Positions 1 through 27,110 of a stretch of 64,000 nucleotides of DNA are shown here, one piece after another. The stretch's first letter is position 1; every line of letters starts with the position of its first letter. A program made the position numbers and the translations under genes. The stretch comes from Psammoneis japonica. Taxonomy: Eukaryota. The stretch lies in contig QPGO01000009.1 in the NCBI GenBank assembly GCA_008632985.1, forward strand, positions 124,001 through 188,000. Direction: 5' to 3'. The notes below the pieces were generated by a model that was given only the letters and a program-made list of their open reading frames with translations, ran no database searches and was not told where the DNA came from.

Positions 1-61
1 TCTCAATGACAGGGTCAATCGGATCCTTGACTCAGACTGTCACGCTGCAAACCTCAACAAT

Positions 62-2657
62 GTGACCGCAGCAGCTGCTCATCTAACTCCTGAAGAGCAG
101 AAGCAGCTGAACTTCCTCTTAAAAAGATTTGAAAACCTTTTCGATGGTTCTCCAGGCAAATGGACCGGGAAACCGGTGGATTTAAAGTTGAAATCGGGCG
201 TGAGTCCGCATCATGCCAAACCATTTCCCGTGCCACAAGCCTTGGAGGCGACTGCTCGTAAGGAGGTTGAAAGACTGTGCAAGTTGAAAGTCTTGAGAAA
301 AATGGGTTGTTCTGAATGGGCGGCTCCAACCTTTGTTCAACCCAAGAAAAATGGCAGAGTTCGGTTCTCGTCCGACTTTCGAGAGCCAAACAAGAGGTTG
401 GTTCGTGCTCCGTTTCCTCTGCCCAACATTCAGGATGTGCTGCAGAAGCTTGAAGGCTTCATGTGTGCAACGTCCCTGGATTTGAACATGGGATGCCATC
501 ATGTCGAATTGACGCCGCGCGCACGTCGCTTGTGCACGATCGTCATGCCTTGGGGCAAATGTGAGTGCTGTAGACTCCCGATGGGAATCTGTGGAGCTCC
601 AGATGTTTTCCAAGAGCACATGAGTGAGCTCATGGCAGGTCTGGAGTTCGTCAGAACTTGTGTTGACGATGTGTTGTGTCTTGCAAAAAGTGATTTTCAA
701 GACCACCTCAAGAAGCTTGAAACGGTGTTCTTGCACCTGGAACAAGCCGGATTGAAGGTCAACGCCGAGAAGTCCTTTTTCGCCAAACCCGAAGTAGACT
801 GTCTGGGCTTTCATGTCACCCGCAAGGGCATCAGCCCGATTCCAAAAAAAGCAGAAGCGATTCACGCGATCGCAACTCCCAAAACTCGCAAGGAATTGCG
901 ACGCTTTGTCGGCATGATCAACTGCTGTCGAGACATGTGGCCTCGACGATCTCATGTTTTAGCTCCCTTAGCCAAACTCACTTCTACCCAAGTAAAGTGG
1001 CAATGGACCAAAACAGAACAAAAAGCCTTCGAAAACATGAAGCGCATCATCTCCAAAGATGTGCTGTTGTCACACCCGAATTTTAACATGCCCTTTGAGA
1101 CATGTGCCGATGCTAGCAAATCTCAATTGGGGGCGGTTGTTACTCAGAAAAACCGACCAATTGCCTTCTACAGCCGCAAGCTGAATGGAGCGCAGACGCG
1201 TTGTGCTACAACGGAAAAAGAGCTGTTGTCCACAGTGGAGACGTTAAAAGAGTTCCGAAATGTGCTGTTTGGCCAACAGATAAACATGTGCACGGATCAC
1301 AAAAATCTCACACACAAAAATTTCACAACGGACAGAGTCATGCGTTGGCGTCTAATGATAGAAGAATGCAGTCCCGAAATGATGTACCTTGAGGGCAAGG
1401 CAAATGTTGTCGCAGACGCGATTAGCCGACTTACTGTGAAGAAAATAGGAAACCCTCAGCACAGAAGAGCTAGCTGAAAAGGTCCTGCCAAAATCCTACG
1501 ACAATGTCTTTCCGTTAAATTACAAAGTTCTTGATTCTGAACAAAAACGGGATAAAGACATTCTCTCCCAATTGTCAAATAAGACGTTTCATACGAAGAC
1601 TTTTCGTGGAGGCGAGCGAGACCGGTTGCTCACATGTCATAAGGATAAAATTGTCGTCCCGAGGACGTTACAAAAGGCAGTGATAGATTGGTGTCATACA
1701 TGCCTTCTTCACCCTGGCATAAATCGAACAGAAGAAACAATCTCACAACACCTATGGTGGTCCACCTTACGTGAAGACATACGAAAATACGTGTCGAGAT
1801 GTGAGACGTGCCAAAAATTCAAAAAGAAACACAAGAAATGTGGACATTTACCTCCCAAGTGCGCAGAATCCGCACCATGGGAACGACTGTGTGTGGACCT
1901 TGTTGGGCCATACAAAACACGTCGTAAGGGAAAGAAGAAACCCCTGGTCCTGAAATGTTTGGCTGTGATCGATCCAGCAACCGGATGGTTTGAAGTTGTG
2001 GAAATCCCAAACGAGGAGTCCACAGCTGCAGCTGGGCTGTTAGAACGAACATGGCCAAGCAGATGTCCTTGGCCATCGTTGATCACACATGACCGTGGAA
2101 GTGAGTTCATCGGACACCAATTTAGAGAAATGGCGCAAGATGATTGTGGCATTGAAGTCAAGCCTGTGGCTGCACGAAATCCACAAGCAAGTGCAGTTGT
2201 TGAACGCATGCATCAAGCACTGGGGAACATGCTCCGCACATTTGATTTGCAACATGCACCTCCAGACACTGAGGATCCTTTCGCTGGAATGCTGTCAGCA
2301 GTGGCATTTGCGGCACGTTCTGCGCATCACACCACTGCGCAAGCTGCGCCAGGACAACCAGTCTTCAATAGAGACATGATGTTCAACGTCCAACATGTCG
2401 CGGACTGGAAATTGGTCCAGCAGCGAAAACAAGAAATCACAAACAAAAATGACGCTCGAGAGAATGCTCGACGTGCTCCTTGCACGCACAGAGCAGGAGA
2501 AAAGACACTGCTTGAGAAAGACTTGCAAAAATTAGAACAGCCCCGTGTTGGACCGCATGCAATGACAACGGCGCACACCAATGGCACAGCACAGATCAAA
2601 CGCGGTGACGTCATTGACGCTGTCAACATTCGTCGAACAATGCCGTTTGACGACTGA
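62..2657 (+). pseudogene. Gypsy pol of copy A, inactivated
   Basis: ORFs 62-1477 and 1572-2657 are split by an 8-nt deletion near 1448 (AACCTGTG present in copy B). The RT YxDD motif reads CVDD (659-670). Confidence 0.9.
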
Positions 2658-2672
2658 CTCCAATGTGCAATT

Positions 2673-2683
2673 GGGGAGGCGAA
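2673..2683 (+). promoter_or_regulatory. Polypurine tract of Gypsy copy A
   Basis: GGGGAGGCGAA immediately before the LTR-initial TG. The same tract lies on the minus strand at about 3180-3190 for copy B. Confidence 0.8.
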
Positions 2684-3062
2684 TGCAATGTGCGTTGTCA
2701 TGCATGTGTTGTGTGTGTGTGTCCATGCATTGAATGAAAGTGCGCTTCAATCGCACGTCAATCGTGGGTTCGTACGAAGTGCAGATCAGTCACACAGAAG
2801 CAATTGGATGTCAAGAATCGCAAATGCGATCGTACGATGATGTTGACATCTCATGTGTCAATGTCAATCGCATCCGGACAATCTGTCGTCACGACCACAT
2901 TCTCCGAAAGGCCTTTTGTCTGCAGGAGCAGTGCAAAAGGTTTAGGCTGTTGAGAGCCCGTTCGGAGAAACCCAAAATGATTGCGCAGAAACAATTCTCA
3001 CAATTTTCACTTTTTGAACTTCACTCTGCTTTCGTTTGCACTCGTTCTTCGAGCATGGCGCA
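2684..3062 (+). repeat. 3' LTR of Gypsy copy A (379 bp)
   Basis: Starts TGCAATGTGC, ends GCATGGCGCA. Same length as, and alignable to, the reverse complement of 7598-7976. Confidence 0.9.
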
Positions 3063-3179
3063 CTTCTGTGTGATTGATCTGTGCTTCGCACGAACCCACG
3101 ATTGACGCATGATTGAAATGTGCTTTTGTTCAATGTGCAGATGTGCACATGTGGTGCGCACATGACAATGCACATTGCA
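3061..3179 (-). repeat. Truncated 3' LTR of Gypsy copy B
   Basis: Minus strand reads TGCAATGTGCATTGTCATG..., matching the LTR start, and stops where copy A's LTR ends. Confidence 0.85.
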
Positions 3180-3205
3180 TTCGCCTCCCCAATTGCACAT
3201 TAGAG

Positions 3206-6200
3206 TCAGTCGTCAAACGGTGTTGTTCGACGAACATTGACAGTGTCAACAACGTTGCCGCGTTTGATCTGCACTGTGCCATTGGCATGTGCCGTTGTTG
3301 TTGCATGCGGTCCAACATGGGGCTGTTCTAATTTTTGCGAGTCTTTCTCGAGCAGCATCTTTTCTCCTGCTCTGCACGTGTGAGGAGCACGTCGAGCATT
3401 CTCTCGAGCGTTGTTTTTATTTGTGATTTCTTGTTTTCGCTGCTGGACCAATTTCCAGTCCGCGACATGTTGGACGTTGAATGTCATGTCTCCATTGAAG
3501 ACTGGTTGTCCTGGCGCAGCTTGCGCAGCGGCATGACACGCAGAACGTGCTGCAAACGCTGCTGCTGACAGCATTCCAGCGAAAGGTTCCTCAGCATCTA
3601 GAGGTGCATGTTGCAAATCAAATGTGCGGAGCATGTTCCCCAGCACTTGATGCACGCGTTCAACAATTGCGTTTGCTTGTGGATTTCGCGCAGTTGTGGG
3701 CTTGACTTTAATGCCACAATCATCTTGCACCATTTCTCCAAATTGGTGTCCGATGAACTCACTTCCACGGTCACATGCAATTGACGATGGCCAAGGACAT
3801 CTGCTTGGCCATGTTCGTTCTAATGGTCCAGCTGCAGTTGTGGACTCCTCATTTGGGATTTCCACAACTTCAAACCATCCGGTTGCTGGATCGACCACAG
3901 CTGAACATTTCAGGACTGGGGGTTTTTTCTTTCCCTTACGACGCATTTTGCATGGCCCAATGAGGTCCACACACAGTCATTCCCATGGTGCGGATTCTGC
4001 GCACTCAGGAGGTAAATGTCCACATTTCTTGTGTTTCTTTTTGAATTTTTGGCACGTCTCACATCTCGACACGTATTTTCGTATGTCTTCACGTAAGGTG
4101 GACCACCGTGGGTGTTGTGAGATTGTTTCTTCTGTTCGATTCATGCCAGGGTGAAGAAGGCATGCATGACACCAACCCATCACTGCCTTTTGTAACGTCC
4201 TCGGGACGACAATTTTATCCTTGTGACATGTGAGCAACCGGTCTCGCTCGCCTCCACGAAAAGTCTTCGTATGAAACGTCTCATTTGACAATTGGGAGAG
4301 AATGTCTTTATCCCGTTTTTGTTCATGATCAAGAACTTTGTAATTTAACGGAAAGACATTGTCGCAGGATTTTGGCAGGACCTTTTCAGCCAGCTCTTCT
4401 GTGCTGAGGGTTTCCACAGGTTCTATTTTCTTCACAGCAAGTCGGCTAATCGCATCTGCGACAACACTTGCCTTGCCCTCAAGGCATGTTATTTCGGGAC
4501 TGCATTCTTCCATCATTAGACGCCAATGCATGACTCTGTCCGTTGTGAAATTTTTGTGTGTGAGATTTTTGTGATCCGCACATGTGTTTGTCTGTTGGCC
4601 AAACAGCACATTTCGGAACTCTTTTAACGTCTCCACTGTGGACAACAGCTCTTTTTCCGTTGTGGCATGACGCGTCTGCGCTCCATTCAGCTTGCGGCTG
4701 TAGAAGGCAATTGGTCGGTTTTTCTGAGCAACAACCGCCCCCAATTGAGATTTGCTGGCATCGGCACATGTCTCAAAGGGTGTGTTAAAATTCGGGTGTG
4801 ACAACAGCACATCTTTGGAGATGATGCGCTTCACATTTTCGAAGGCTTTTTGTTCTGTTTCGGTCCATTGCCACTTTGCTTGGGCAGAAGTGAGTTTGGC
4901 CAAGGGAGCCAAAACATGAGATCGTCGAGGCCACATGTCTCGACAGTGGTTGATCATGCCGACAAAGCGCCGCAATTCCTTGCGAGTTTCAGGAGTTGCG
5001 ATCGCGTGAATCGCTTCTACTTTTTTTGGAATCGGACTGATGCCCTTGCGGGTGATGTGAAAGCCCAGACAGTCTGCTTCGGGTTCAGCGAAAAAGGACT
5101 TCTCGGCGTTGACCTTCAATCCGGCTTGTTCTAGGCGCAAGAACGCCGTTTCAAGCTTCTTGAGGTGGTCTTGAAAATCACCTTTTGCAAGACACAACAC
5201 ATCGTCAATGCAAGTTCTGACGAACTCCAGACCTGCCATGAGCTCACTCATGTGCTCTTGGAAAACATCTGGAGCTCCACAGATTCCCATCGGGAGTCTG
5301 CAGCACTCACATTTGCCCCCAGGCATGACAATTGTGCACAAGCAACGTGCACGCGGCGTCAATTCGACATGACAGCATCCCATGTTTAAATCTAGGGACA
5401 TTGCACACATGAAGCCTTCAAGCTTCTGCAGCATGTCCTGAACATTGGGCAGAGGAAACGGAGTGCGAATTAACCTCTCACTCAGCTCTCGAAAGTCGGA
5501 CAAGAACCAAACTCTGCCATTTTTCTTGGGTTGAATGAAGGTTGGAGCCGCCCATTCAGAACAATTTGTTTTTCTTGAGACTTTCAACTTGCATGGTCTT
5601 TCAACCTCCTTACGAGCAGTCGCCTCCAAGGCTTGTGGTGCGGGAAATGGTTTGGCATGACACGGACTCATGCCCGATTTTAACTTTGAATCCACCGGTT
5701 TCCCGCTCCATTTGCCCAGAGAGCCATCGAAAAGGTTTTCAAATCTTTTTAAGAGGAAGTTCAGCTGCTTCTGCTCTTCAGGAGTTAGATGAGCAGCCGC
5801 TGCGGTCACATTGTTGAGGTTTGCAGCGTGACAGTCTGAGTCAAGGATCCGATTGACCCTGTCATTAAGACCAATCACTGCATGAGATTCCTCAACATGA
5901 TCGGCAATCAACTTAAAAACATCGGCATCGAAGAGTGTGCCAACATTCTTCACAGGAGCAGTTGCATCTTCCCATTTAATTTCTTCATTCGAGAAGTCCA
6001 ATGTCATCCCAAGACTTGACATTAAGTCGCGTCCCATGATCACATCATAACGACTCGAAGAAGAAGGGGAGTTGTCAACATGTGCCGTTGTTTCAATCAT
6101 CTCATGTTTGTCAAATTCGGGTGAGGAGAATTGGATCTTACATCGACTGTCAGTCGTGAAGAGCCCTCCTTTGGTTTCCCAGAGTTTGGTGGCGGATGCT

Positions 6201-6406
6201 TTTGTTCTGAGTTTCCGCGTGAATTTGCGCAAAATTATGGTTGACGATGTTCCGCCATCGAGGAGAACGCGTAGAGGCTTGTTTTTCGCCTTGCCTGATG
6301 AAGCATTCACATGGGCGACGACTGCTGGACTAGCATGAATTACTTTGGCCCTTTTTCTGGGCTTCCCAATGTCCAGCAGAGCGCAAGACTCCTCTTGCGG
6401 TGCAAG
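3206..6406 (-). pseudogene. Gypsy pol of copy B (aspartic protease, RT, RNase H, integrase)
   Basis: LLDGGTSS protease motif, CIDD RT motif, DASKSQLG, integrase core. Premature TGA at 3977-3979 where copy A has CGA (1884-1886). Confidence 0.9.
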
Positions 6407-7597
6407 TCATTCCTCGGAATCACTGCGCGTCATTTTTTCAAACTGATGATTTTCCTCGTCAAGGGTGTCAGAATCATGATCTTTGCTCTTGTGTTTTTTG
6501 TCATTGTTCGAAGAACTCGCTTTGAGCAATTTTTGAACTGCTTGGATCGCCACAGCATTCAATTCTTCTTTGCGAGCGGCGTCATCGTTATCGCGACGAG
6601 ACCACGTGCGATTGCCATTTGAACGGCGCCGTTTCGGGTCGGGTTCATAGTTCCCACGGCATTCTTTCGCAAGTCTTTTGATCGACCAGCACTTGTCCGT
6701 GTTGTGAGTGGATTTCTCGCACAAAATGCACCACTTCTCGGACTGAGATTTTTCGGCACCATGTTGGTGACCATTTTTGGAACCACGTTGGGAACCACTC
6801 TTGGCTTTTGATGCAGTGCCGCCACTGCCATCAGCCTTGGCATGAATGCCATCAAATGTGTCTTCTGCGACCTCCAGGCGCTCCAAGAACTCAGCCAGCT
6901 CGTCACAGGTGTGTTTCAAAATTTCGAAACCCTGGACGGTCGACTGACGCTGCCACTTTCGAGGTGCAAGGTTGAAGAGGATGTCCTTGAGCTCGTCGTC
7001 CTCGATCTTCTGTTCCTTCCCAAAGGGAGGACAGAACTTGAGATCTTCGTTGACTTCCTGGACCCAAGCAGCAATTTTGCGTGCTTTCATGGACTCCGGC
7101 TTCTTGAGATCACGACGCAAATGACGTTTCTGCACCGAAAGTGCGTTCTTGGGAAACACATGCCTCGTGAGATGTTGCAGGCATTTCTCGAAGCTTCCTT
7201 CCGCAGATTCGTCTTCAAGGTTCGCTGCCGCATTCTCGAAAGCATGTGGGGCGTCTCCTTGGAGTGACATGCGCATGAGACGAAACTTGTCAGATTGCTT
7301 CCTGACATTCTGGCCCACTGGAAGTTGATCATAGCTCTTGAGAAATTCGATGAACTTGGGGACACCTTGTTTCTTGTAGTGCTCAACATTGATGGTGCAG
7401 GTGCGGCTGTCCTTCTTCTCGGGATGAAAACGTTGCTCCATCTTGAGGTGCTGGCTCGGTTTGAGGCTCTTCGGCTCGGAGTTCGATTCCAGCGGTTGAG
7501 GGACGATTTTCTCCTGCCTCAACGAAGTTTTGGCGTTGGTTGCATGAGGTGAAAGCTTCATCTTGAACTTGTTGCCTTCTGTGGTGTGTGTGCACAA
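6407..7597 (-). CDS. Gypsy Gag-like protein with zinc knuckle (probably mutated; start uncertain)
   Basis: 396-codon ORF directly after the 5' LTR, containing CILCEKSTHNTDKC (CX2CX4HX4C). Confidence 0.8.
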   Translation of the reverse strand: MCTHTTEGNKFKMKLSPHATNAKTSLRQEKIVPQPLESNSEPKSLKPSQHLKMEQRFHPEKKDSRTCTINVEHYKKQGVPKFIEFLKSYDQLPVGQNVRKQSDKFRLMRMSLQGDAPHAFENAAANLEDESAEGSFEKCLQHLTRHVFPKNALSVQKRHLRRDLKKPESMKARKIAAWVQEVNEDLKFCPPFGKEQKIEDDELKDILFNLAPRKWQRQSTVQGFEILKHTCDELAEFLERLEVAEDTFDGIHAKADGSGGTASKAKSGSQRGSKNGHQHGAEKSQSEKWCILCEKSTHNTDKCWSIKRLAKECRGNYEPDPKRRRSNGNRTWSRRDNDDAARKEELNAVAIQAVQKLLKASSSNNDKKHKSKDHDSDTLDEENHQFEKMTRSDSEE

Positions 7598-7976
7598 TGC
7601 ACTGTGCTCGAAGAACGAGTGTAAACGAAAGTAGAATGAAGTTCAAAAGGTGAAAATTATGAGAATTATTTCTGCGCAATCATTTTGGGTTCCTCCGAAC
7701 GGGTTCTCAACAGCCTAAACCTTTTGCACTGCTCTTACAGACAAAAGGCCTTTTGGAGAATGTGATCGTGACAACAGATTGTCCGGATGCGATTGACATT
7801 GACACACAAGATGTCAACATCATCGTACGATCGCATTTGCGATTCTCGACATCCGGTCACTTCTGTGTGATTGATCTGCACTTCGTACGAACCCACGATT
7901 GACGTGCGATTGAAACATGCTTTTATTTGACACACAGATGTGCACACACAGTACGTGCATGACAACGCACATTGCA
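7598..7976 (-). repeat. 5' LTR of Gypsy copy B (379 bp)
   Basis: Begins TGCAATGTGC, ends GCACAGTGCA (imperfect terminal inverted repeat), contains AATAAA. Confidence 0.9.
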
Positions 7977-10900
7977 CAGGCACGCCTGGGCTGGTTGTTG
8001 TGCTCATCTCCCTTTGCCTGCATGCAGTGCCAAAACTCAACCTGGACAAAGCTTTCTCTGTTTGCTTGCTTTCTCACCAGCTTTTGTGCAGAGTGTCTGC
8101 CCACCACCCACAGACTTCGCTGAGTGAGTCAAACTTCAACACTTCAGCGGCCTCTTTTGGTTTTCATTGCTGGCCAGCTGTCATTGTCATGTTTTTGTCC
8201 ACATGCTCAGCTGACCACAGCAGATCCCAGAGGTGCTCTGTGCGCCCTTTGTCTTGCTGTGGACTCAAGCGCAAGGCCAGCATCAAGTGGTTGCTTTTTG
8301 CAAAATGAAAGCCTGTTGTTTTGCATGTTGTGTGCGACACAAGCAGCAGCTCCTTGCTGTCATTGTTGGATCTGGTGCAGGATCTGGTGCAGAGACACTT
8401 CTTGATGTTGCAGTCTGCATGTCATCACACAACAAAGAAGCCACTCAACACAAGGTCTCTGCCGCCATTGAAAAAAGGGTGGAGATGAGGCAGCTTGTGA
8501 AGGGGTTGTTTTTGAAGATCCAAGAGGCAGCCACAAGCTGCGCTGCACAGCCTTTGACAATGGCAACAAATGCCAGTTTGATCTTGCTGAAAAAGAAAAG
8601 CCCAGTTGCTTGCGGTGGTTGAGCATGAAGGGAAAGAAAAGTTTTTCATTGATCATTCCAGCACAAGCCTTGCAAAGAGGCAGAAAGCAAGCAGATTGAG
8701 AACACCCAAGAGGAGCAGAGAGCACTTTTGGCTCTGGAGCCAAATCCCATGCCAAGCTCAGATGGCAAAATGACCAGGGGGTGCGCTGACGAGTTGCTTT
8801 GCATGCTCTCAAGAAAGAATTGCTGGCAGCTGTTCTGAAGCTTGAAGCAAGCTTTGCATGCTCCAAAAAAAGAGCCCTGAACATCCAGGAGTCCAGCAGC
8901 ACATGAGACAAAAAATTGGGAGCCCCCTTGTCAAAACTCTCTTTCATGCCCTGATTTGGGCCTGATCAACATCCTTTGGTGCAATGATCTTGTGTCAGCA
9001 GCAGTGCTGCAACTTTGGTTGATGTTAAAAATGTGGGCAATGTGGCAAAAACAAAGCAGTGCTTTTGTCCAGCATGAAACTTCTCTCTCTCTTTCTTTCT
9101 CCTCTCTCTCCAACCACAAAGTGGTGTGAGCACAGAGTGAAAGTGTGGGGTGTTTGTGAGCAAATGAGCACAAAGTGTGCCAGCGCTGTGCCTGTGAATC
9201 TGGCAGTGGCTCACCTGCCCATTTCTGAGCACACTGCAACCCATGCTGTGCTCTGTCCCAGCATGGCACTCAGTGTGACTTGTTCCTCAATCAGCCAAGA
9301 GCATTGGAGCTTTGCACCCACCACATCATTTGTGCTTTGTGAGAGCTGAGTTGCATTTGTCACTTGCCCAAGACAACCTGCACTTCCAAAGCCAGGCTGC
9401 AGGTCAAGGGTCATGTGTTTTGAGCCAGCATTGCTCCCAGCACACTCTGTGGGCTCGGCACTCTCTTTGAGTTTCTTCAGCCCAGCACCAAGGGCTCAGC
9501 AATCTGACTTTCTCTCACACTCAGTGTGTGGAGTTAATTGGGCATGACAAGCTTGTGTGAGCTCCATCTTTGTTGTCATTCCACCTGCAAAGCAGGGCAC
9601 TGATCTTTGCTCCTGCAGCACAAGATCTGCTAAATCTGTTGAGGGCCCAACTGCAGTCTTGCAGCTCTCCAACAAAGTCCCTCACTTGACCACACATGGC
9701 ACCACCAGTTGCTCAATTGTCAACCCCAGTGCTGGTTCAGAGTTGGCACCCAAGGTTGCTGCATGCCCCAAGATGTGTTTTTGCACCAAGACTGCACTGC
9801 TGCTGTTGCAAAACACCCCGCACTGTGGCAAAGCAACAAGGCCATTTTGGGTCATTGAGATTTTGTCTGTGTGGGCTGCAAGAGCCTCTCCAAACTCTCC
9901 CTCTTCTGGGCTTGTTGCCACTGGTGTGTTGACAGCTTCAGCTGATCATGCAGCTCACTTGACAATTTCAAATTGTCACGTTGTGTGGGAGTTTAAAAAT
10001 GCCACCCAGAGGTGCCATTGTTTGTGTGTGGGCACACAAAGAAATGGCAAGCACCCTGTGTGTCACTCTTGCAACACATCAGACAGATGATGAGAGTTGC
10101 AGCTGTGATGAGATGCGCCAAGTGCAGACCACAGATTGCTTTGCAATGATTGTTGCCAGAATGGCAGTTGCAGGAAGGAAGCTTTTGAGCACTGCTGGTC
10201 AGGTTGAGTCCTGTTTTTTGGTGCCAGACATGGAGATGTGAGCCAGTGCTTGGTTGAGCCTGTGTCCCATGCGATGTTGCTCTTCTGCAACTCATCAGGT
10301 CCAAGCTTGTTGCTTGTGGCATGGACAAGGCACACAAGCTGTGGGTTGGCAGCAGAGTTTTTTTGGGGCTTGTTGCACAAGAGTTGAAGAGAAATGCTCT
10401 GTGAGGTTGATGGGTTGATGATCCAGGCAAGTTCATCATTGCAGCTCATCAGCTCTGAGTGCCTTGTCACAGTGTTGGCAGTGCTCAAAAGCCTTTGTCA
10501 TGGAATGTCTGACCAGCAAGAGAGTGGCCACCTGCCCGCCAACTTGCAAACCACATTTTTGATGTGGGCGAAGCAAACTGTGCTGATGGTCAATTGGTTT
10601 GATGTTCCAGGTGAGTTTGCTGATGTGGCTCATCAGCTCCAACATTGTTGTGGCACAAGCAATGCCCACAGGCATTTTTTCTTTGAATGTCTGGTGGCCA
10701 GGAAGGTGTCATCATTTGATTTGCCAAAGCAGGTGAAGCCACTGTTTTCTGCAAATCAAGGAGAAAGGCGCCATTGGGCTGACTGCTTGATGATCCAGGC
10801 GACCTCAATTGCACAGTTTTGTGAACTTGAGATCTTGACAGTGTGGGCATGCTGCTGGTTGTGGCGGTGAAAACTTCTTGCTGGGGTGCAGGCCATGAAT

Positions 10901-13900
10901 CAACTGACATGCAGCTGTGGGTGACTGTCTTCAGGAGTGTTGTTTTGAGTCTCACAATGATGCCCAGATGAGCTGGTCATGCACTCAAGCTGGCCATCTG
11001 GAGCAAACAGTGGTTGCTGGTGGCTGAGAGCAAGGTCTTAGCCACCCACTGCATTGTGAGCTGGATTCATGTGTCAGCTTGTTGTGATGCCAAAGGAGCA
11101 CCCCTTGAAAGAGAAATGCGCTGACAAGCAACTTCAGACTGTTGTGTGCACCAATGGAAAGCACCCAAATTCAATGATGCAAGTTGGAGGTGGAGCAGTG
11201 CATTGTGTCACCATGTCAGCACACACCATTCCAAGGGACCAAAAAAAAGCCAGCATCATCAAAACCTGCCAAAGAAGTGGAGCTCACGGACAGAGAATGG
11301 TGACAGAAATGATGTCCCTGCAGCGTCACTCTGGTGATCTCTCTCATTTCACTTGGAGCCTCCCAGATTGTGGACACAGGATGCAAATCAGAAGTCTGAG
11401 TCATGCTGAGAAAAAAAATGACCAAGAGCATGGGCCCTCACCAAGCAGCCCAGCAGGAGAATGATGGCAAATGGGGCTCTGTGACATGTTCCAGCCATTG
11501 CAACAAGGTCACCAACATGACCCATGGAAGCAAGCAAAGAGTTTTCTGGCTTCTTTGCAGCTCACATGCTTGCTGGAGGATTGTGGCAGGTGCACATTCT
11601 CCAACTGCAAGTGCAAATGGCAAAAAAAATTGATTTTGCCACAAGGGGAGGACTGCCACAGAACTCTTTCTGCAAGGCCCTGCAACACTCCATTTTTCCA
11701 CATCCTGGCTGTGATTTGTCTGTTTTTTCTTGTCATTCTGTTGTGAATGGTGAAAGTGTGAGTTCATTCTGACTTTGCCTTTTCCTTCATGGCAGCACAG
11801 CACTGTCAAGTGGATGATCTTCAGGGAAAGAATTTGAGCCTTGTGGCACCTGGTTTCCAGCACTTCAAATTGCAGTTTTTTGTTTCAAGCAAGCAATCAA
11901 CATGTGAATTTAGATGGAGAGATTCTGAGTGTAGATTTGTGGACCTTCACCCAGAGTTCCTGGCACAATTTCAGGAGTGACGTGGTGCATGAAATTGCGC
12001 CAACCACAGCTTTTCACAAACTGCTGGTCCCAAAATCAACAATGATTCGTTCTTGAAATCCAACAAAATCTACAGAGAAAAGCACACCTCATCATGATCC
12101 AAGCTGTTCAAGTTCCACCACTGCCAGCCCTCCATTGTCACACTGTCACATTTGAGCACATCCACCATTTTGATCTCCATGGAAGACTTTGCGCCGCACA
12201 AAATCTCCATGATCAACGTGACCACAGGCATCCACTCCTCCCTTTTTCAATTGAGTTGACATGCCTGCTTGCACACAGACATCTTTTTGTTCCACACTTG
12301 GCTGTCTGAGTCAACAGAGTGACTCATTGTCCAACAGCTGTTTTGTGTGGGTGTTTTGTCTTTTTGCAACTTACGATGGCAAAGGCACCCACATCCAATG
12401 CCAGGCCACTTGTGTTTGGAAACAAGGCAAAAAAGCTGAGTGGAGCAAACAAAAGTGCAGCTGGTTGCCTTGATGCCATTTGCATTGAGTGACTCCAGTT
12501 GCAGTCTTTGTTGCCAGTGAAGCATCGCCAAGCATCAAATGCAACAGAACAAGAAAAAGAGTCAAAACTGCCTTTGTGACAATCAACAACAGGAGTGCAA
12601 ACATCTTCAATCCCACACTGGTTGCTCACTCAAGCTTTCCACAGCATTGTTTGAATTGTTGCCCAGCAATGGGAGCTGATGTCCATGAGGTTTGTGAGTT
12701 GTGGCAATGGTCCCGGAGGGCCACAACACAGCGCACACATGCAGGCTTGGGGTTTTGGTTTTTTTTTGGGGGGGGGGGGGGGGCTTGTTTTGTCTGGAGA
12801 CATGGGTTCTTGTGAGTGTGTCACACACAGCAGTGCGTGGTGCACCGTCCAGGCCCCAGTGGAGGGGTGAGTGGCAAGTGCTTCTGGCAGTGGCAAGCAG
12901 CACTTCACTGCATGCTGCAGTCTGCAGTGGCAGAGACAAGAGACAACAAGATGTGACACATGATGGTGGAAGACATGCCAGCCACAGATGAGTCATCCAG
13001 TGATGAGCCACCACTTCCACCTGCAGCTCCTCCTGCATCCAAGTGCAGTCTTCCCTGCTGGCAGGATGCTCAAGCAACTGAGCCTGGTCAGTTCTGATGG
13101 ACAAGATGAGACTCTCTCTCTCTCTCTCTTTCTTGCATGCAATCACAGGTCAGTCCAGGTGCCAAGCAGCTGAAGTGTTTTAAGTTCAATTGACCATCAA
13201 TTCTCAGTGCTTTCCAAATCTGGGCCCCCACTTTTTTCATCTGGGGGACTCCCCCTTTTGTTGAAAAATTCTCCCCCCAAAACCCCAAGCCCACATGCAT
13301 GCAACAGCGCAATCATTGACATCCTTGGCTTGGTGTGCAGTCAAGGTGCACGCAAATTGTCACAGACAAAGTTCTGTGTGCTGCGCACATTGAATTGCAG
13401 CAACAGACAAAGATGTGGTTGGACAGGAGCAGTGCAGATGCACTGTGGCCATTGATCTGCTGTGTGTCAACTCCAGATGCTGCACAAAATGAACAGCAGA
13501 AATGTCCAGCAATGTTGGTGGTGTGACCAGAGGGTTGGTCATTGTTGACACATCATTTGTTTGCACACACAGTTTGACAACAAAGTTTGAAGACATTTGC
13601 CATGCCATTTTGTTTCAGCATTGGTGGTGGGGGGGAGTGGGAGTTGTGGGGGGGTCAATCACAGTGGCACTGCTGTTGTTTGCATCTTTGCACTGAGTTT
13701 TTGCCATGAGCATTGTGAGTGGGTCCAGCTGAAACTGGCTGGCAGATGACAAAAAGTTGACAAGAACCATGATCCATGGTTGCTGGTGCAGCAGCACCTC
13801 TTTGCAAAATGCAGTGCCGGGGCAGGATGACAGCTCTTGCCATGTGTCCTCTTCACCCACAACAGATGCCGCCAGCACCTCTTTGAGTTTTTTTTCATGT

Positions 13901-14555
13901 GCTTGCACATCATGGACATGTGAGTCATTTAGAAGTGACAACAACATGCTCACAACACGAGTCAATGCATTGACTCATTTCAATTGCCAATGACAGGCAA
14001 TTGAGGTGAGCACATTTGAGCATGCACGAGCAATTTGTGTCAGAACTTTGCGGCTTGCTGGCTGTTCTCATCTGTTCCCAACCTTGCAGCATGGATTGCA
14101 AGCACAACTCTGATGCCATTGCTGTGCTGCCTTGGCGCAGAAGCCAAAAAGTGAGCTTGAGACGCACCTTCATGGTGAGTTGTGAGTGCAGGTTCATGAC
14201 ATTGCCAACAGTCATCAGCACTCATTCACTGCAGCATGTTTTCTGTCTGCCCTCCAAGAGCTGTGTCACACCCCAATGTTCCAACATGCTCCTTTGAATG
14301 GCTGGCCTCATGTGCACCCATCAAAAGAGAACAACAGTTGGAAGCCATGCTGCCCAACACTGCATCAACTGCTTTGTCAAGAGACCTGCAGCTGACGCCA
14401 TCCAACTCTGCCAACAAATGATGGCTGCCCTCATTGAGCGAAGCTCTCCTTCACATGCCCAGCCTTGTTCACTTCCAGCATTTGGCCCATCTCTTCTCCT
14501 GTTGCACAAAGCTTGCCCCCCCATGTTTCTTGTTGGCCCCGCACCACATTGAATG
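7977..14555. repeat. Degenerate TpA/CpG-depleted repeat-derived DNA, family unassigned
   Basis: Almost no TA or CG dinucleotides. (CT)n tracts at ~9080 and ~13110. 13990-14400 resembles modules at ~22.1 kb and ~52.3 kb. Confidence 0.5.
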
Positions 14556-14738
14556 AATGCTGATGTGGTGTTCGTGGCCTGTGCCACAGCACTCTTGCCC
14601 TTCTGTCATTGCCACACTTGTGTCTGCACTGCATCTCCCATGCAATTGGACGCTGTTGTCACTGTGACCCAAACACACGTCCACAGTTGTTCACCCACAC
14701 ACTGACCAAACACAGACCACTCCACTGGGATTCACTTG
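14556..14738 (-). repeat. 3' LTR of the Copia element (ends approximate)
   Basis: Direct repeat of 20692-20876 (AATGCTGATGTGGTGTT...CCACTCCACTGGGATT). Confidence 0.8.
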
Positions 14739-17700
14739 GTCCCTGCAAATTGGCAATGCTTTGCCAGCTCATCTGCTCAAAACATCCTCTCACAGAGAGG
14801 CAAAACACAAACCCAATTGGCCACCAGCCAGTCTGGCTTGGGAGGTCACAAGGCATGAACATGAGTTGCAAGCCCTGGACCTTGGCTGCAAGGGAACCAT
14901 CATTGCCAAAAGACAAATGAGCACAACTGCCAACACTTTTCACCTGTCACAAGCTCTGTCAATGGATCTGCCAAATTCGTCTCCGCATCTTCCTTTCCAA
15001 CTCTCACAATTCCAGCTGCAACTGCCTCTCTCACTGTGTGACAGTTGACTGCATTGTGCTTCTTGTGCAATGCAGATTCTGGGACACTGATGTTCTTCAC
15101 CACACCGTGGTTGTTGCAAAACACATTCAACAATCATGTCCTCACAAGTGCACATCACGACCAACTCACTGCCAAATGCAGAAGACTCAACTGCATTCTG
15201 CCACTTGCTGAACCACACAATTGGAAAATTGTTCACAAAGACAACTGCGCACTTTCTTGAGGGGCTGTGCAACCAATCCTTGGAATTTTCTGCAACTTTG
15301 CAGGCCATCTTGGTCATGAAAAACTTTTTGAGTGCTGCATCAAAAGTGCCCTCTTCACCACAGAGCAGCGCTTGCGTCATGCTGGCTCCTCTCCTTTGTT
15401 TGTGGACGTGGCCATTGATCTGTCAGCATTCTTTCTTAAACTCACAGGACAAGCAGCTGGGAATGCGAGATGCCATTGAAGTGGGCTCCTCGTCTGATGC
15501 CACACGAAGAATCATTTTGCAGGTTTTCATTGCATGGGCAGTGCCAGAGTGTGGCCTGCATGCAATGACATTTCCAGCATGATTTGCATCAACAAAAGCA
15601 TGCACAGTCGCCGGGTTTCCACACAGCTCAGGCACCTCAGGTGGCAACTCTTCTTCACAGAATGCAGTCCAATCTGCCACACTGTTGAACACAGACTCAT
15701 CAATCTCAGGACTCTTGGGATCAAATCCAACCCCACCTCTGCCCGGATGCTTTTTCACACATGCAAATGCATGGCACAAGGCTTCCATGTGACCTTTCCT
15801 TGGATTCGCCTGATGTTGAGAAAGCAAAGACACTTCAAACAAAATGACAACGTGGCCCAACTCAATCATCCATCTTGCAATTCCAACAAGCTGCAAATGC
15901 CGGGACATGGAGTCGGGGCCCAATTTGTCCGTCACACCCAACTCTGGCTTGTGCTTTGCTGGGAATGGATCCTTGCTTCACACTGTTCTTCAAGACTGCA
16001 CCATCCCTGTCCTCACTTGACAGATCTTCCACTGTCTTGATTGTGTTCTTGATGCGGTCCTCAGGTGAACTGGCCCAAATCATGCGACTGTCTTGTGTCT
16101 GAATCTTCTCTGTCATTGCTCCCAAACAAGTCTCAGGTTCTCCTTCACTCCCAGGCTTGATCTTGCAATGCTCGGCAACAGACTTGACAACTGACTTGCC
16201 TTGATGCAACATCATCAGTGCATCATCCACACACACCAATGGCATCTCACAGTGCTTGTGCCCGTCTTTGCAAACTGCTGCTCACAAGGCTCAAATGCAC
16301 ATTGGGATCCGCTCATGTCGGTTTGAAACCCACATCTCACAAAGCAGAAGAAAATGTCAATTGCCATGAAAACCCTGCACTTTTCAATCCGTGAAGTGCT
16401 CTCACTGCAACCAATGCACACCCTTTGAACTTGTTGTCACACTCAGCTCCACCTTTGAACCATGTCTTCTCTGCACACGGTGCACTCAAACAAGCACTCT
16501 CCAAGTCGATTGCAGCAACATCCACATTGTTCAAGGCTGCTGGCACAAAAGCAATTCGTGCACTGTCCCTCAAGACAATGCTTGAGTGCGTGATTGAATC
16601 CAGTGCTTTTGCAGTGTGACCTCCAGCTGCAAACCTGGCCTTGCAGGTGAAATCCATCTTGACGTGAAACACCACATGGCATTGCATCTCTTGACATCCA
16701 CACAGCTTCTGACTCTTTCCTTCATGGACTTGTTGTGGAGTTTTGCCATTGTGCTTTTCCCATGCCACCTTTGCCTCAGTCATCTCCTTGTCAATGGCTC
16801 TGGCCCAATGGTCTGTCCCTGTCCCATGATCAATGTGCAGTGCTTCATCAACACTCTTTGGCAACTTGACCCCAAACTTGTGAGTGATTCACCAGCACTT
16901 TGACTTGACCTTTGACACAATGTGGCTTCATTTCCTTGGCACATGGGGTGCCCACCAAGCAAACACTGGTTCATTGGCAATTCTGTTGGCCACTGCATGC
17001 TCTGCCACTTCAACAGGATTAGAGTCCTTGACGTCTTTCAATTTGACCCAGTCAGAGCTGCCGTCCTTCCATGCCATCAGTGACTCCCAACCTTTTGTCA
17101 TCTTCTTCTTCTTGCTTTGACCTCCTGCAGTCTCAACTGTGCCATCATCCTTCAAAATTGCTTCCCACATCATCCTGTGGTCTTGAACTTCATGCAAAAC
17201 AGAGCACTGATGACCCTCATTGTTGACCTGAGCGGGCATGTTCTCAGCTGTGACATCTGTGTGCTCGATTTTGCACTCTCTTGCATCAAACAATGGGCTC
17301 TGATGTCTCCATCCCATTGGTTTGCCATCATGACCTCTTGCTCTCATTGCAACTGCACCATGCCTTTCTCCTTCTGTTCCGACATCCACCAGGATTAGCT
17401 CCATGCCAAGGCACTGGTCCATGGCTTCCTCGTCATCATCATCAGGGCACTCTTGTCATCTGTCAGCATGTCACCATGTTCTTTGTCATCTGGCACAACA
17501 CCTCCTTCACACTGCACATTGCACAATCATTGAAACAGAAGAATGCTGGGACTGCCTTGTCTCCTTCAAGCACAAAGTTCATGTCATCCAATCATTTTTT
17601 CAGAGCTTCACTGAGCTCATTGATCCATTTTCTTTTGTCCAACTCAACACAGTCTGCCTGCACAACTTGCTCCATGGAGGTTTCAGACACCAACTTGCTG

Positions 17701-20672
17701 CTCTCAGTCACAATCCAGCGACACATGTCCAACCCGACTTCATGTGATGTGCCAAGCCATCTTCCAAGCCGCCCAGGATCTGCAGTTGCACTTGGCTTCA
17801 AATCCGGTCTATCCTGCCACCAAACCAGGTCACAGAATCCAAAATCTGGGTGCTCCCTAATCTCTGGTGTTTGTCCTGTCACTTTTTCACATCTGGCTTT
17901 CCTGTCTTGACCTCGTGCCATTCTTGACAGCAACTCAGGTTCATGTGCTAGACCAAAATCCCACAATTGCTTTGGAGCTTTCTTCTCATTCATTCGCAGC
18001 CTCCAGTGCTCAGCCAAGAAACCTGTCTCCCATTCTGCTGTGTGACTCTGGTTCTTCCTGCCTTGTTCTGAGTTCCTGAGCTGTGTGCGCATGCGTCTCA
18101 CATGTTTCACAAAATCTGCATTCTTGCCAGTGAATTCTCCTGCCTCGTCCGTCAACAAGAACTTGGGCGCTCCAACATCGTCTGTGAACTCAACTGACGA
18201 TTGTCCTGCTTCCAACTGAGCTGTCATCAGGGTGACCTTTACAAACTTTCCCTGAGTGCAATCATTGGCACAAGTGTTGCCAAGAATGGACTTGACTTTT
18301 GAAATGAGGGTGTCAGCAAACCATGTCCCTTTTAGTCTCTTCCAGTGCAAATCCAGGCAATCCACATGAACACGCCTTGACAATGGCTGCATTGCTGTCC
18401 TGACACCTCGCTGAGTTGTGACATTGAGAGTGTCCTTTGCCGCATCTGGGCCAACATTCCACTTCCATGCTGGCTCCTCTGCTGTGATCTTTGAGTGCCG
18501 ATCCTTTGCACAATGTTCTGAGACTTTCTGTTCCAACCTGTCAACGTCCTCCCTGCAGGCACACTCAATCTTTGCAGATGCAATCATGCGGTCACAAAGT
18601 GTCAGAAGGTGATGAGTTGGGGAAATGCTTGCCACAGCCTCCTCAACTTCTCCCCACCATTGGACCGCTGCAGACTTGTCTTGCCCTGCTCTTGACTCTG
18701 ACATCTCTGACTTTCACATGTGGGGTGCCAATGATTGGATGGCCTGCATCTCCTGTTGCTCTCTGGTCTCATTCAGAAAACCCCCATGTCAACTTCTGAT
18801 GGATTCCAAGTGTCACCTGCAAGTGAGACAACTGGCAAATTCTGTTCCTCCCATTCTGTGGGCACTCAAGACTCAAAAGACACAACTGTCCCTGTGGCAT
18901 GAAAAGGCACAAAGGCTTCTTCCGTTGAAACACCAAAGCTGTCTTGGGGATTGCAAGGGTTGTCATTTGCCAAGACATTGCATGCTGTTCCATTTGCTGT
19001 CTGAACCATGACATCTGATCACCAACCAACAAATGTTTGGCTGCAGCATCAGGATCTGTCAAAACAGCACAACATTGAGCAACTGGAATTTGTTTGACCA
19101 GATCACATGATTCAAGGAATGGACTCACTTCACACATTTCATCAGTGGTCTCCATCAACTTCCAGTTCACTCCTGCACAACACATGTCCCCCACAAGCAA
19201 AGCCCCTGCCTGGGCCTCCATCATGGGACATTTCCGACATCTTGCACTTTGAACAATGCTGGGCCTCTAATTGGGATGCACCATGCAAACAAGAAACTTC
19301 AGCAGAGAAAAGAGGGCACACACACCAGGAAAGTTGCCAGGACGCTGCTGGCTGATCACAGGAATGCAAGCTTGCAGCCAAACATTGTTGATCTTAACCC
19401 CTCTCTGGAGAATCTCAACTTTTTGCCCTTCTGTCTTGCCCTGGTCCTCATCCTTTGCCAAGGTTGCAAATGCACTGGTGAGTTTTGCTGTGTGCTGTTC
19501 AAACAACAGGCGATGCTTGTTTTTACAGTGCAATGACCTGATGTTTGCCAATGCCAACTGAGTGCACTTGCCAAGCTCTCCCTGTCCATTGCAATGGTCT
19601 GTCCATGCCCAAAAAAGGCATCTCTCCCATTCTTTGTGCCGCTGTGGGCTTCAATCCAAGTCATTGCTTCCTTGTTTGCCATGTGAGCTTTCAACAAATG
19701 ACACACAGTGTGATTGTCCTGGTCAAATGCCACCCCATTCAAGCTCAATTGATGCACATGCTCCTCAACTGTGTCAACGAATGTGGCCGCTGCTGCTGCT
19801 GGCCTTGCCATGCAACACAATGGCTCTTTTAATGCCCCAACGTTCTGTGAGACAAGAGGTTCAAAAATGCATCCTCCATCACATCAAAATCATCCGACTT
19901 GAATGCCGGCAAGGAGCTGACCAACACTTTGGATTCAACCATGTCTTTTTCAATGTGCTTCTTCTGGCAAGGCAGCATCAACTGGTGCTGCCTGATTGAA
20001 AAGTGCTGAATCCAATGCAAGGCTGTGCTTCTGATGATCACAAAGCCACCAGCCCAAAGCTTGCAAGTTCTTAATTTGGACAGTGCCAAGTGTTGCTCTC
20101 CCATCCTGGTTGGCATGACTGCCAACCCTGTTTGCCATGTCTTCCATGTCCCAGTCACCTTCCATTGCTGCAATGTTTTCCAGTGTCACAAGTCCATCAC
20201 AACACACCAAGCAAGCTCTTGCATTGATGTTGGCAATGCCACATGTCTGCAGAACATCATCAACATCCACTGCATGGACAGGAGACTGAACGCTCTGCGA
20301 GCACCATGGTGACAGGTCCACACAGTCAACTGGCAATGGGAGGCCACCCCATGCCAATTTGTCTGAGTGGTGAGCACACACTCTGGGCATGCCACCGCCC
20401 CCACACTGCTCTGTTTGACGCCTCTAGCACACATTGAAAACCAATTGATTCACAAGTGTGACACCATTTCAACCACAGCAATTCTCATGGTTGGTTGGCA
20501 TTTGTTGCAAAATCTGATGTTGCCCGATGCACACACGCAAAAACCAGCACTGCTTCTGTGGCTGACACCCATGTGGTTCTGCACAGCAGCAACAAATGGC
20601 CACATGTGTTGTTTTGTTTCACACCCGTGTGATGACAATTCCATTGTGCTCAGATGCTCAACAACAGACCAT

Positions 20673-20684
20673 GGCTCTGACAAA
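20673..20684 (-). promoter_or_regulatory. Probable degenerate initiator-Met tRNA primer-binding site
   Basis: Minus strand TGTCAGAGCC next to the 5' LTR matches the core of the canonical TGGTATCAGAGCC with one TA->TG change. Confidence 0.5.
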
Positions 20685-20691
20685 GCAAACA

Positions 20692-20876
20692 AATGCTGAT
20701 GTGGTGTTGCGGCCTGTGCTGCAACACTCTTGCCCTTCTGTTGTTGCCACACTTGTGTCTGCACTGCAATTCCCATGCAATTAGATGTTGTCATCATTGT
20801 GACCCAAATGTGTGTCCACAGTCATTCACCCACACACTGACCAAATGCAGGCCACTCCACTGGGATTTGCTTGACA
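20692..20876 (-). repeat. 5' LTR of the Copia element (ends approximate)
   Basis: Direct repeat of 14556-14738; begins TGTCAAG on the minus strand. Confidence 0.8.
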
Positions 20877-20879
20877 TGT

Positions 20880-22520
20880 CCAACACCTGCAGCACCTCCT
20901 TGGCTGAGTTGGTGGGGTGGCTGTCAACCCCCAGTGCAAGCTGCCAGTGTGGGTCCTTCAAGACACACCAACCCTCATTTTAGAGGGTGCCTTCCATGAG
21001 CAGCACTGCCAACAACTTGCTCCTCTCTTTCTTCTGAGTGTCCTCAGCATCCGTGCTGAACCCATCTTCTTTCTTGGCAATTTCTTCTGGGACAACTCTG
21101 CTGCAGGACCCTCCCACCATCTCAGCAGCACTTGCAAGCTAACTGCAATGATCTTGAAGTGCCTCTCTTTCATCTTGATGAGCGAGCATCAGCCAGCTGG
21201 TGCTTCCAAGCCTCAACAGCCTGAGTGTGCAAGTAGATTCTCTTGGCTGCATTGACCAAGATCAGCTTGTTGCATTGACCAAGATCAACTTGAAAATTTC
21301 CAACAGCACCACCATGTCCCACTCTGTTGTGGCCCTTGCAAACTCCATCACTCCTTTGACCTTGTGATGGATGGCCTTTGTTCACTGTCCTGCAGTTAAA
21401 AAAGAAACACCCTTGCCTTCTGCATCTCACAGATTGTGCCCCATCTCATGTGGTGACCACCTCATTTCCCCCCAAAAAGCCCCATCCTTCTCTGATGCTG
21501 TTGCCTCTGATGGATGCTTCAGCTCATCCAGTTTGTTCTCCTGCCTCAGAGATGCCAGCAGCTGTGTCTCCAGCCCAGGTGCTCTTCTGACATGCTTGCT
21601 TGTTCTCCTTGCAGTCTCCATGTGCCAGTCGGCCTGTCAACCTGACTTGGCAATGGCGCCACATGCCTGCTCCTTCAAATCTTTCATGCTTCTGTGCTCT
21701 GCTGCATCCTTGCCCATGTCAATGCTTCTGCTGGTCCAACACAACATCGCCACACCCTCTGTTGGCAGACCCTTGCAGCTTCCTCACAGCAAGGTCCTCC
21801 AGAGGCTGTTTCTTTGCCTCCAGTCACTCCTTCAACCAGAGCAACAATTCTGCAATGACTCTTGTCAGCTCAGCAAACTCAAATGCCATGATTGCTCACA
21901 CCAACCAAGTCTTGGATTCTTCTTGATTTCCCAGCCAGCCTTTTTCACTTCTGTGTTGGAACTTCATGGCCTTCCCACTGATCTGCGCCAGTCTTGCTGA
22001 TTCCCAAACTCACCACGTGGACTGCAAACACAGCTCCAATGCTGTCGCCATGTTGCCCTGATGCAGAAGCTGAAAAATGAGTCCAAGCACAGACCCACAT
22101 TCATGGCAAGCTGCAAATGTGGATTTGCAATGTTGTCAACAGCTGCCAGTGTTCTTCCACTGTGACATTGTTCATCTGTCCTCCAAAAACTGTGATGTGC
22201 TCCAATGTTCCCACAATTGAGCATGTGTGAAGCACAGCAGCTGGACCAAATGCTGTCATGAGGGCTGTCAACCAGCAGCTCTGGCAGCTGGAGCAGCCAA
22301 GTGTGAAAGCTGAGCCGCCAGCACCAGCAGATTGGCTCAAACTAATGATGAAACAGGCTGTGTTTTGTGCTGCTCAGCAAGGGAAGAACAGTGGCTCTCC
22401 ACTGCTCTCCATGTCTTTGATGCTGAGAGAAAAGTGACTGGCAATTCAAGTGAGCACATTTGAGCTCATTTGAGCATGTTGAGTGCATGTGAGCACATGC
22501 GAGCACACATGAGCACATTT
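20880..22520 (-). mobile_element. Degraded gag-like repeat fragment; related copies at ~43.6-44.2, ~46.6-47.0 and ~51.1-53.2 kb
   Basis: Shared peptides LRQENKL(D/E)EL.HPS.ATA (21.5 and 51.8 kb) and shared DNA GCTGAACCCATCTTCTTT.TTGGCAATTTCTTCTGG (21055 and 52841). Ends in ~10-bp GAGCACAT repeats. Confidence 0.6.
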
Positions 22521-25500: not shown

Positions 25501-25562
25501 CAATCAGTGTGTTGAGTCTGCTCAGAAATTCATGATGCATGTCCCATGAGAACTTGAGTGCC

Positions 25563-25656
25563 GCTGAAAAACATTGTTTGACTGTCCATGCTCTGGACAC
25601 CAGTGTCAAGCTGAAAAACATTGTTCAACTGTCCATGCTCTGGACACCAGTGTCAA
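25563..25656. repeat. 47-bp tandem duplication
   Basis: GCTGAAAAACATTGTT(TG/CA)ACTGTCCATGCTCTGGACACCAGTGTCAA twice; the copies differ only by a TG/CA swap. Confidence 0.85.
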
Positions 25657-26699: not shown

Positions 26700-27110
26700 G
26701 AAAACCTGCAAAAGAAGGTGTGCATGCTGAAGCCTGACATGCACTTGACAGGTGGGTGCCGAGTCACTCGTTTCTGCACACAGGACATGTTGCAAGACCT
26801 GCTTGCCCACCCACTTTTTGACAATGAGCACAGCCTCAATGTGAGCCAGTTGATTCAGGAACAACATCTGGAGGGCTGCAACATCTGCAAAATTGTGCCC
26901 AACAAGCAGCACTTTGACACACACACAACAATCTCCCCAAAGACTTTGACCAAGAAAAAGACTTGCTCCTTGTCATTGGCTTGCATGCAGACCAGAGAGG
27001 AGCTGATGCCTGTCAATGCTGTCCACTTGAGCCTTGGCTCTTTGGCGTCCTTGTTGTGAAGAGACAAGCTTGCAAACACCCATGTCATTCTCTGGGTTCT
27101 GTCTTGGTTT
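26700..27110 (+). pseudogene. Possible Plavaka-like transposase remnant
   Basis: DMLQDLLAHPLF...IGLHADQRGADACQCCPLEPWLF resembles the LYxDxTxxD....LEPxxF block as I recall it, once Tyr->His/Cys is reverted. From memory only. Confidence 0.4.

Follow-up and report, generated by a model that had tools for sequence, protein, structure and literature searches.

Textbooks present the mutation of chromosomal repeats as a form of genome defence peculiar to fungi, in which C is turned into T: repeat-induced point mutation (RIP) of ascomycetes, a premeiotic process that is triggered by duplicated sequence and involves a RID-type methyltransferase, introduces dinucleotide-specific C>T transitions on both strands of chromosomal repeats and inactivates transposons, with the ribosomal DNA (rDNA) being spared. 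Editing of retroelements by APOBEC3 or ADAR enzymes affects one strand and takes place before integration. A process that erases TpA has been described once before, in 2026, in the rhizarian alga Bigelowiella natans, for which a preprint reports TpA>TpG/CpA changes in integrated nucleocytoplasmic large DNA virus and virophage DNA at ~6e-7 per site per generation, a de novo TpA rate raised about 1000-fold in vegetative lines, and ADAT2 as the proposed enzyme (Mettrop et al., bioRxiv 10.64898/2026.01.13.699255). Here we analyse a stretch of 64,000 nucleotides of the diatom Psammoneis japonica (assembly GCA_008632985.1, contig QPGO01000009.1, positions 124,001 to 188,000; hereafter the window), in which two nested copies, A and B, of a Ty3/gypsy long terminal repeat (LTR) retrotransposon have been depleted of TA. 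That a chromosomal mutator converts T:A into C:G almost solely at TpA of silenced transposon-derived DNA we regard as close to certain.

The likeness to the B. natans process, as far as the preprint describes it, extends to TpA>TpG/CpA (T:A>C:G) transitions restricted to TpA, in nuclear DNA and on both strands, limited to DNA that is foreign or silent while host genes are spared, and locally switched on or off; TpA-poor reverse transcriptase (RT) and DDE genes figure in that preprint too. The diatom differs from what is described there in being a stramenopile host with a multicopy retrotransposon as target, in the ~80% saturation of hit tracts and the near-total loss in old DNA, and in per-insertion blocks of ~1 kb, a TAY context (Y, pyrimidine) and a linked loss of CpG. 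The accessible preprint text does not contain the words 'diatom', 'LTR' or 'flank', and a literature search that left subscription journals mostly aside found no report of a TA-erasing process in diatoms; what is added here is a further lineage, retrotransposons as targets, saturation, block states set at each insertion and a motif in the sequence context. With RIP the process has in common dinucleotide-specific transitions on both strands of chromosomal repeats, the inactivation of transposons and the sparing of rDNA, but its polarity is opposite, as RIP makes TpA and the diatom process destroys it.

Relatives were found with the 5′ LTR of copy B as query, 40 of 479 candidates being scored, and 19 element loci plus a stretch upstream of the window (L031) were used; as the loci were picked by likeness to that LTR, the sample is tilted toward close relatives. 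The LTR-pair set comprises 18 pairs (16 two-LTR loci and copies A and B; 6747 sites compared), and the 20-copy alignment adds two copies without a full second LTR; neither set includes the second contig of copy B's own site, and hazard estimates come from 19 copies, the most diverged being omitted.

An earlier note on this DNA had read the LTRs of copy B as differing almost only by exchanges among TA, TG and CA, and had concluded that a mutator acts on both strands of integrated DNA and also destroys TA-containing signals; it proposed LTR-pair alignments as a check. Both strings that it quoted are present on the minus strand (5′ LTR 7976-7598; 3′ LTR proximal part 3179-3063), although the 119 bp that it saw of the 3′ LTR are just the first part of a 379-bp repeat. 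Over the first 113 sites the pair shows 23 differences, all of them transitions within pyrimidine-purine (YR) steps (as dinucleotides 9 TG/CA, 2 TA/CA, 1 TA/TG and 2 CG/CA); 11 of the remaining 261 sites differ, 9 in YR steps, and the whole pair comes to 34/374 with zero transversions. Since 1139 of 2507 identical sites (45%) of the A/B internal alignment fall in YR steps, the pattern is far above chance. It extends to the 18 pairs, with 472 differences, 460 of them transitions and 442 within YR (TA/TG/CA/CG) steps; the 343 dinucleotide differences are TA/CA 106, TA/TG 99, TG/CA 96, CG/CA 26, CG/TG 13 and CG/TA 3, without strand asymmetry between TA/TG and TA/CA (P=0.68).

The 348 TA-class columns of the 20 copies hold 2735 TA, 2022 TG, 2019 CA and 33 CG cells, the 281 CG-class columns 5095 CG, 213 TG and 202 CA among 5511, so that 59% of TA steps and 8% of CG steps have been lost; single copies retain 46-251 TA and 226-280 CG. 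Where TG and CA are both common (197 columns), TA is still seen in 161 and CG in 17. The hazard at TA, 0.44 per base, is about twelvefold that at CG (0.035) and ~400 times the per-cell transversion frequency in the same copies (0.0011), other transitions standing at 0.005; where at least 3 copies have TA in a column, 13 of 2714 changes are transversions. Polarity comes from the protein. An alignment of 60 homologues gives 18 columns of conserved Tyr, at which the 20 copies show Y 113, C 153, H 89 and other residues 2; columns of Cys, Phe and Pro are retained to 98-100%, the RT motif begins with Tyr in 118/120 homologues against 5/20 copies, and the pol of copy B has 0.5% Tyr against 3.0-5.3% in 120 homologues. 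As Tyr has thus become Cys or His, a TG/CA swap represents an ancestral TA that was hit twice independently, once on each strand.

Within a copy the two LTRs agree in 152/157 non-TA marker cells and in 281/584 TA-class cells. Where both LTRs are changed at the same TA-class cell, the derived state is common to them in 123/218, and between copies in 60% of 26,544 comparisons, roughly what the context bias predicts. Strand coupling is absent at 3-60 nucleotides (nt; z -1.9 to +1.4) and found at 2 nt only, in adjacent TATA sites (222/324, null 0.53, z 6). Because TG and CA are interleaved without coupling beyond 2 nt, the changes became fixed in the chromosome in the course of many replications, and editing of RNA or of a single molecule before integration, which would be expected to leave one-strand tracts, is excluded. 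TA mutation follows insertion; each copy is hit independently of the others, the two strands are affected alike, and sites change one by one across many rounds of replication. Strand-coordinated tracts, as from one-round lesion segregation or kataegis, were considered and rejected, no coordination reaching past 2 nt. That the mutator works on integrated DNA therefore stands by virtue of the interleaving, whereas differing LTRs alone, on which the earlier note relied, leave editing of double-stranded DNA before integration open; its dismissal of ADAR-type RNA editing (TG against CA 2022:2019 across copies, 99:106 in LTR pairs) and of CpG decay as sufficient is borne out. Deamination-type hypermutation of LTR elements is shared with APOBEC3 and ADAR editing, from which the diatom case differs in being strand-symmetric and post-integration.

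Mutation proceeds in ~1-kb all-or-none blocks with common edges, the state of which is set per insertion. Block X (alignment columns ~3050-4050) and block Y (~4300-5050, extending into the 3′ LTR) are, like the 5′ LTR, almost untouched or ~80-95% hit in each copy, the core being hit in every copy (48-88%); X is intermediate in five copies (0.20-0.41) and at 0.53 in copy A. Among six copies with common lineage markers in core and X all four X/Y combinations occur, hence block state is neither inherited nor restored. At one locus (L034) TA is kept in the 3′ LTR at 20/20 differences, at another (L045) in the 5′ LTR at 25/25 TA differences. Private CpG loss amounts to 85/2495 in hit and 3/1091 in spared tracts and co-varies with TA loss across copies (rho 0.79), which suggests that the mutator follows chromatin marked by 5-methylcytosine (5mC); transversions do not differ significantly between spared and hit tracts (4/7542 vs 16/17385, P=0.47). 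Contigs of a spared block (91-140 nt, 7-16 TA each) reach a short-read depth of 290-528, compared with 20-32 in two flank contigs of low depth, and lineage markers inside spared blocks match the core of their own copy; both findings speak against blocks made by polishing or converted from a shared donor.

Several accounts of the blocks were set aside: flank composition as the determinant of sparing (uncorrelated overall across 16 copies; 5′ rho -0.29, P=0.28; 3′ rho 0.32, P=0.23), the two most spared 5′ LTRs adjoining TA-normal and the spared 3′ LTRs TA-free DNA; mutual exclusion of X and Y (rho 0.01); and restoration from a common donor, given congruent lineage markers, which do not speak to a donor of the same lineage. 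Contigs of an empty site at L045 were dropped as proof of a hemizygous insertion, the flank itself being of high depth, and A+B differences between the two contigs of the locus were dropped as allelic mutations, since the second contig looks chimeric there.

The favoured target is TAY, with hazards in hit tracts, on the A strand, of 1.32 at TAT, 1.02 at TAC, 0.54 at TAG and 0.35 at TAA. A>G outside TA carries the same 3′ pyrimidine bias (63/744 vs 37/1104 columns, P=3e-6) and stands at 0.0076 against 0.0038 for C>T, a slight spill-over to NAY; TC-step changes are at background, as are AA steps (0.004-0.012). AATAAA ranks with the most resistant TA sites. It does read AACAAA in the 3′ LTR of copy B (3125-3130) and AATGAA in copy A (2733-2738), just as had been noted, but the claim that the mutator destroys this hexamer fails, as it is kept in 27/36 LTRs and in 12/13 cells of otherwise mutated tracts.

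Changes are confined to foreign or silent DNA and host genes are spared. The observed/expected ratio (O/E) of TpA is 0.22 for the window, falls to 0.01-0.13 within old blocks and reaches 0.56-0.89 where genes and rDNA lie, and the erased DNA downstream of copy B is the end state of the process. The spared host gene next to it has diatom proteins as its named homologues (Seminavis, Amphora, Fistulifera, Cylindrotheca). The rDNA serves as a multicopy control: the same contig carries an inverted partial duplicate ~60 kb upstream (L031 1-4715), with further matches on six other contigs, the core of the 18S rDNA stretch is matched at least 8 times across the genome, and a 4.7-kb stretch with 18S rDNA is 99.5% identical to the nearby duplicate with 2 substitutions, neither at TA. 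That this duplicate is untouched would speak against a duplication trigger as in RIP were it not rDNA, which RIP spares as well; spared blocks of the element are as repeated as hit ones. Upstream of the rDNA, a ~520-bp tandem duplicate (window 55740-56770) is 87% identical with many transversions and has kept its TA.

Deamination of 5mC at ancestral CpG, to which the depletion of CpG in old blocks and the CG in 42 of 343 LTR-pair differences might point, has virtually no chance as the sole cause of the TG/CA swaps, since CG is kept in most CG-class cells, TA far outnumbers CG in columns with both TG and CA, and a change of Tyr to Cys or His is impossible from CpG; it is a genuine second process, only slower. 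Diatom transposable elements (TEs) are CG-methylated by DNMT5, and in Phaeodactylum DNMT5a is reported to methylate and silence young TEs (PMC9998398); deamination in such TEs also yields TG and CA, here in the same blocks, but its substrate is CG and its rate in the diatom ~12 times lower. Editing of RNA or cDNA during retrotransposition, ADAR- or APOBEC-like, would account for A>G with a 5′ T/U preference, which resembles ADAR according to the B. natans preprint (bioRxiv 10.64898/2026.01.13.699255), but it is hardly credible with strands equal, TG/CA swaps at one site, both products interleaved on one molecule and one LTR hit with its partner spared (L034, L045). Little more can be said for an artefact of assembly or polishing, with copies mixed, the majority base put back or a modified base read wrongly: block edges do recur over loci, private changes are few in spared blocks and the second contig of the locus looks chimeric inside A+B, yet spared-block contigs carry TA at high depth with the markers of their own core, a short-read run, possibly the assembly's own sample, contains 0.90 of sampled 31-mers of 7560-9500, and the copy B 5′ LTR with its flank is identical in the second contig at 1268/1268 bases, so that we hold it to be very improbable.

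As the best overall explanation we moderately favour a TpA mutator combined with 5mC chromatin blocks and adenine deamination by an enzyme of the TadA/ADAT fold as a RIP-like defence. One change removes the TA, so that sites finish as TG or CA and seldom as CG; the blocks would be chromatin domains marked by 5mC, as the loss of CpG suggests; recruited to silenced blocks, the enzyme would deaminate adenine to hypoxanthine, which would be read as G at replication; and the outcome would be a defence of opposite polarity to RIP that strips Tyr codons from transposon genes. The adenine-deaminase step itself appears somewhat probable. In part, TAY resembles the YAY preference on DNA of the TadA-derived ABE7.10 as reported (PMC10188366), which like ADAT2/3 makes A>G; both, however, are engineered or tRNA enzymes whose substrates are single strands, and in the diatom CA is unfavoured and TACG not the best context.

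Several points weigh against this explanation. CA steps are not raised over AA or GA steps, and TACG, the tRNA context of TadA, has the lowest hazard among TAC contexts (0.70 vs 0.95-1.25). Copy A, alone among the 20 copies, is strand-skewed (165 TG vs 116 CA, P=0.004). The sequence fits a lesion on the A side and on the T side equally, 5mC in the blocks is a suggestion drawn from CpG loss, and the putative defence may be a by-product of silencing. Family searches of the genome did not find a dedicated DNA deaminase; they returned TadA, ADAT2, dCMP deaminase, guanine-type deaminases, RibD and two ADAT1/ADAR-domain loci (names partly by sequence reading), several C5-methyltransferase loci and five Y-family polymerase loci (6 matches), of which the deaminases and polymerases are candidates only for action on DNA. 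ADAT2 does carry the Asn that has been linked to DNA editing, but this residue is usual in eukaryotic ADAT2. The search for the Inv-AAD family gave 0 matches, as did those for Tet_JBP and MT-A70, where the positive controls were silent too. A broken relic of an OTT_1508-like deaminase lies in TA-erased DNA (L092 1453-1692, plus strand, contig C92; second fragment 15 kb off); it is the sole OTT_1508 match, and an intact relative was not found. Elsewhere, a zinc deaminase domain is fused to a 2OG-Fe(II) dioxygenase (DIOX_N + 2OG-FeII_Oxy; L060 313-1785, minus strand, contig C79), which by its domains probably serves nucleobase salvage. C5 DNA methyltransferase frames occur within TA-erased DNA (L070 1069-2163, minus strand, and L071, contigs C301 and C297; TpA O/E 0.07-0.10), possibly borne by mobile elements and themselves hit.

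Other chemistry could produce the same transitions. A modified thymine, for instance oxidised, set at RTA (R, purine) in silenced repeats and pairing with G, would give T>C; as TAY is RTA on the opposite strand, every count fits such a lesion equally well. Dinoflagellates reportedly place 5-hydroxymethyluracil (5hmU) in repeats. An early report of a TA and TC preference of 5hmU is cited in a study the own data of which, as reported there, gave no sequence motif (PMC11071213), TC-step changes are at background in the diatom, and Tet_JBP gave no match, its control being silent as well; we consider a thymine lesion unlikely. Still less probable is an error-prone Y-family polymerase (eta- or iota-like) that misinserts G opposite T at TA in repair patches begun at 5mC damage of silenced DNA. 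The loss of CpG and TA in common blocks, the Y-family loci in the genome, the raised transitions beside TA sites (0.014 vs 0.005) and the strand coupling of adjacent TA sites would suit it, but the WA signature of polymerase eta takes in AA and transversions, while in the element AA steps stay at background, transversions at TA columns are rare, coupling is gone past 2 nt and TA loss is ~12 times CpG loss.

A more far-reaching version of the deaminase explanation, which we put forward tentatively and think doubtful as a whole, is a dedicated chromatin-guided adenine deaminase on double-stranded chromosomal DNA in diatoms and, by extension, in several SAR lineages, as a reverse-polarity RIP that acts per ~1-kb silenced domain, with edges that the sequence of the element itself determines, and erases transposons permanently. 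If true, it would be a natural adenine deaminase for double-stranded DNA and a case of mutational genome defence outside fungi. The enzyme behind the TA mutator may in any case be a natural adenine deaminase for DNA, and near-saturated opposite chemistry in a diatom, after the one case in a rhizarian alga, suggests that the system is older and more widespread. The blocks, their link to CpG loss and the TAY motif can be tested directly in diatoms, a group for which gene editing is available. In such genomes, ages taken from LTR divergence and the annotation of TEs are distorted, as the copy B pair illustrates.

The element is a Ty3/gypsy LTR retrotransposon of a diatom, with the order RT-RNase H-integrase (Pfam), direct 379-bp LTRs and 4-bp target duplications at most copies (Table 1). 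Copy A sits inside the 3′ LTR of copy B in opposite orientation, with CTTC duplicated at both junctions (second CTTC at L031 6891-6894) and the remainder of that LTR (~262 bp, L031 6629-6890) upstream of the window. TA-class sites are changed to 83% in both copies, though B must be older.

Table 1. Features of the window discussed in the text (strand left empty where none applies).
Feature	Position	Strand	Remarks
Copy A, 3′ part	1..3062	+	Element start ~2.1 kb upstream of window
3′ LTR, copy A	2684..3062	+	37/377 sites differ from own 5′ LTR, 36 of them transitions
CTTC target-site duplication of copy A	3063..3066	+	
3′ LTR proximal part, copy B	3063..3179	-	Remainder split off by insertion of copy A
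Block Y internal part in copy B	3179..3676	-	Integrase end, on into 3′ LTR; 94% hit in B, spared in some other copies
Remaining integrase frame, copy B	3206..3976	-	Divided from pol by in-frame stop
Block X in copy B	3926..4926	-	RNase H to integrase start; 78% hit in B, spared in some other copies
pol frame, copy B	3977..6406	-	RT, RNase H, integrase zinc finger (Pfam)
gag-like frame, copy B	6407..7642	-	411 amino acids stop to stop; putative, by place upstream of pol; no Pfam match
5′ LTR, copy B	7598..7976	-	379 bp; 87-94% match to both LTRs in 16 other full-length copies
AATAAA hexamer	7922..7927	-	~50 nt from LTR 5′ end; resistant TA site; putative poly(A) signal
Older TA-erased DNA	8001..29500		TpA O/E 0.01-0.13, CpG 0.10-0.27 per 2 kb up to 30000
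Host gene, spared	29919..31916	-	TpA O/E 0.5-0.6, CpG ~1.0
18S-5.8S-28S rDNA, complete unit	57864..63828	+	TA intact; multicopy control, spared

Copies A and B together form a long inverted repeat of 92% identity. A second contig of the locus (C419 of the same genome, G000; L042, L087, L088) has flanks 99.3-99.4% identical and is ~5 kb shorter inside A+B, which may reflect a deletion at the inverted junction or misassembly. TGCA opens all 17 element starts examined, otherwise spared LTRs included, and any change there is therefore older than this burst of copies. Within the old TA-erased block, at ~14900-20400 on the minus strand, lie badly degraded frames that look copia-type.

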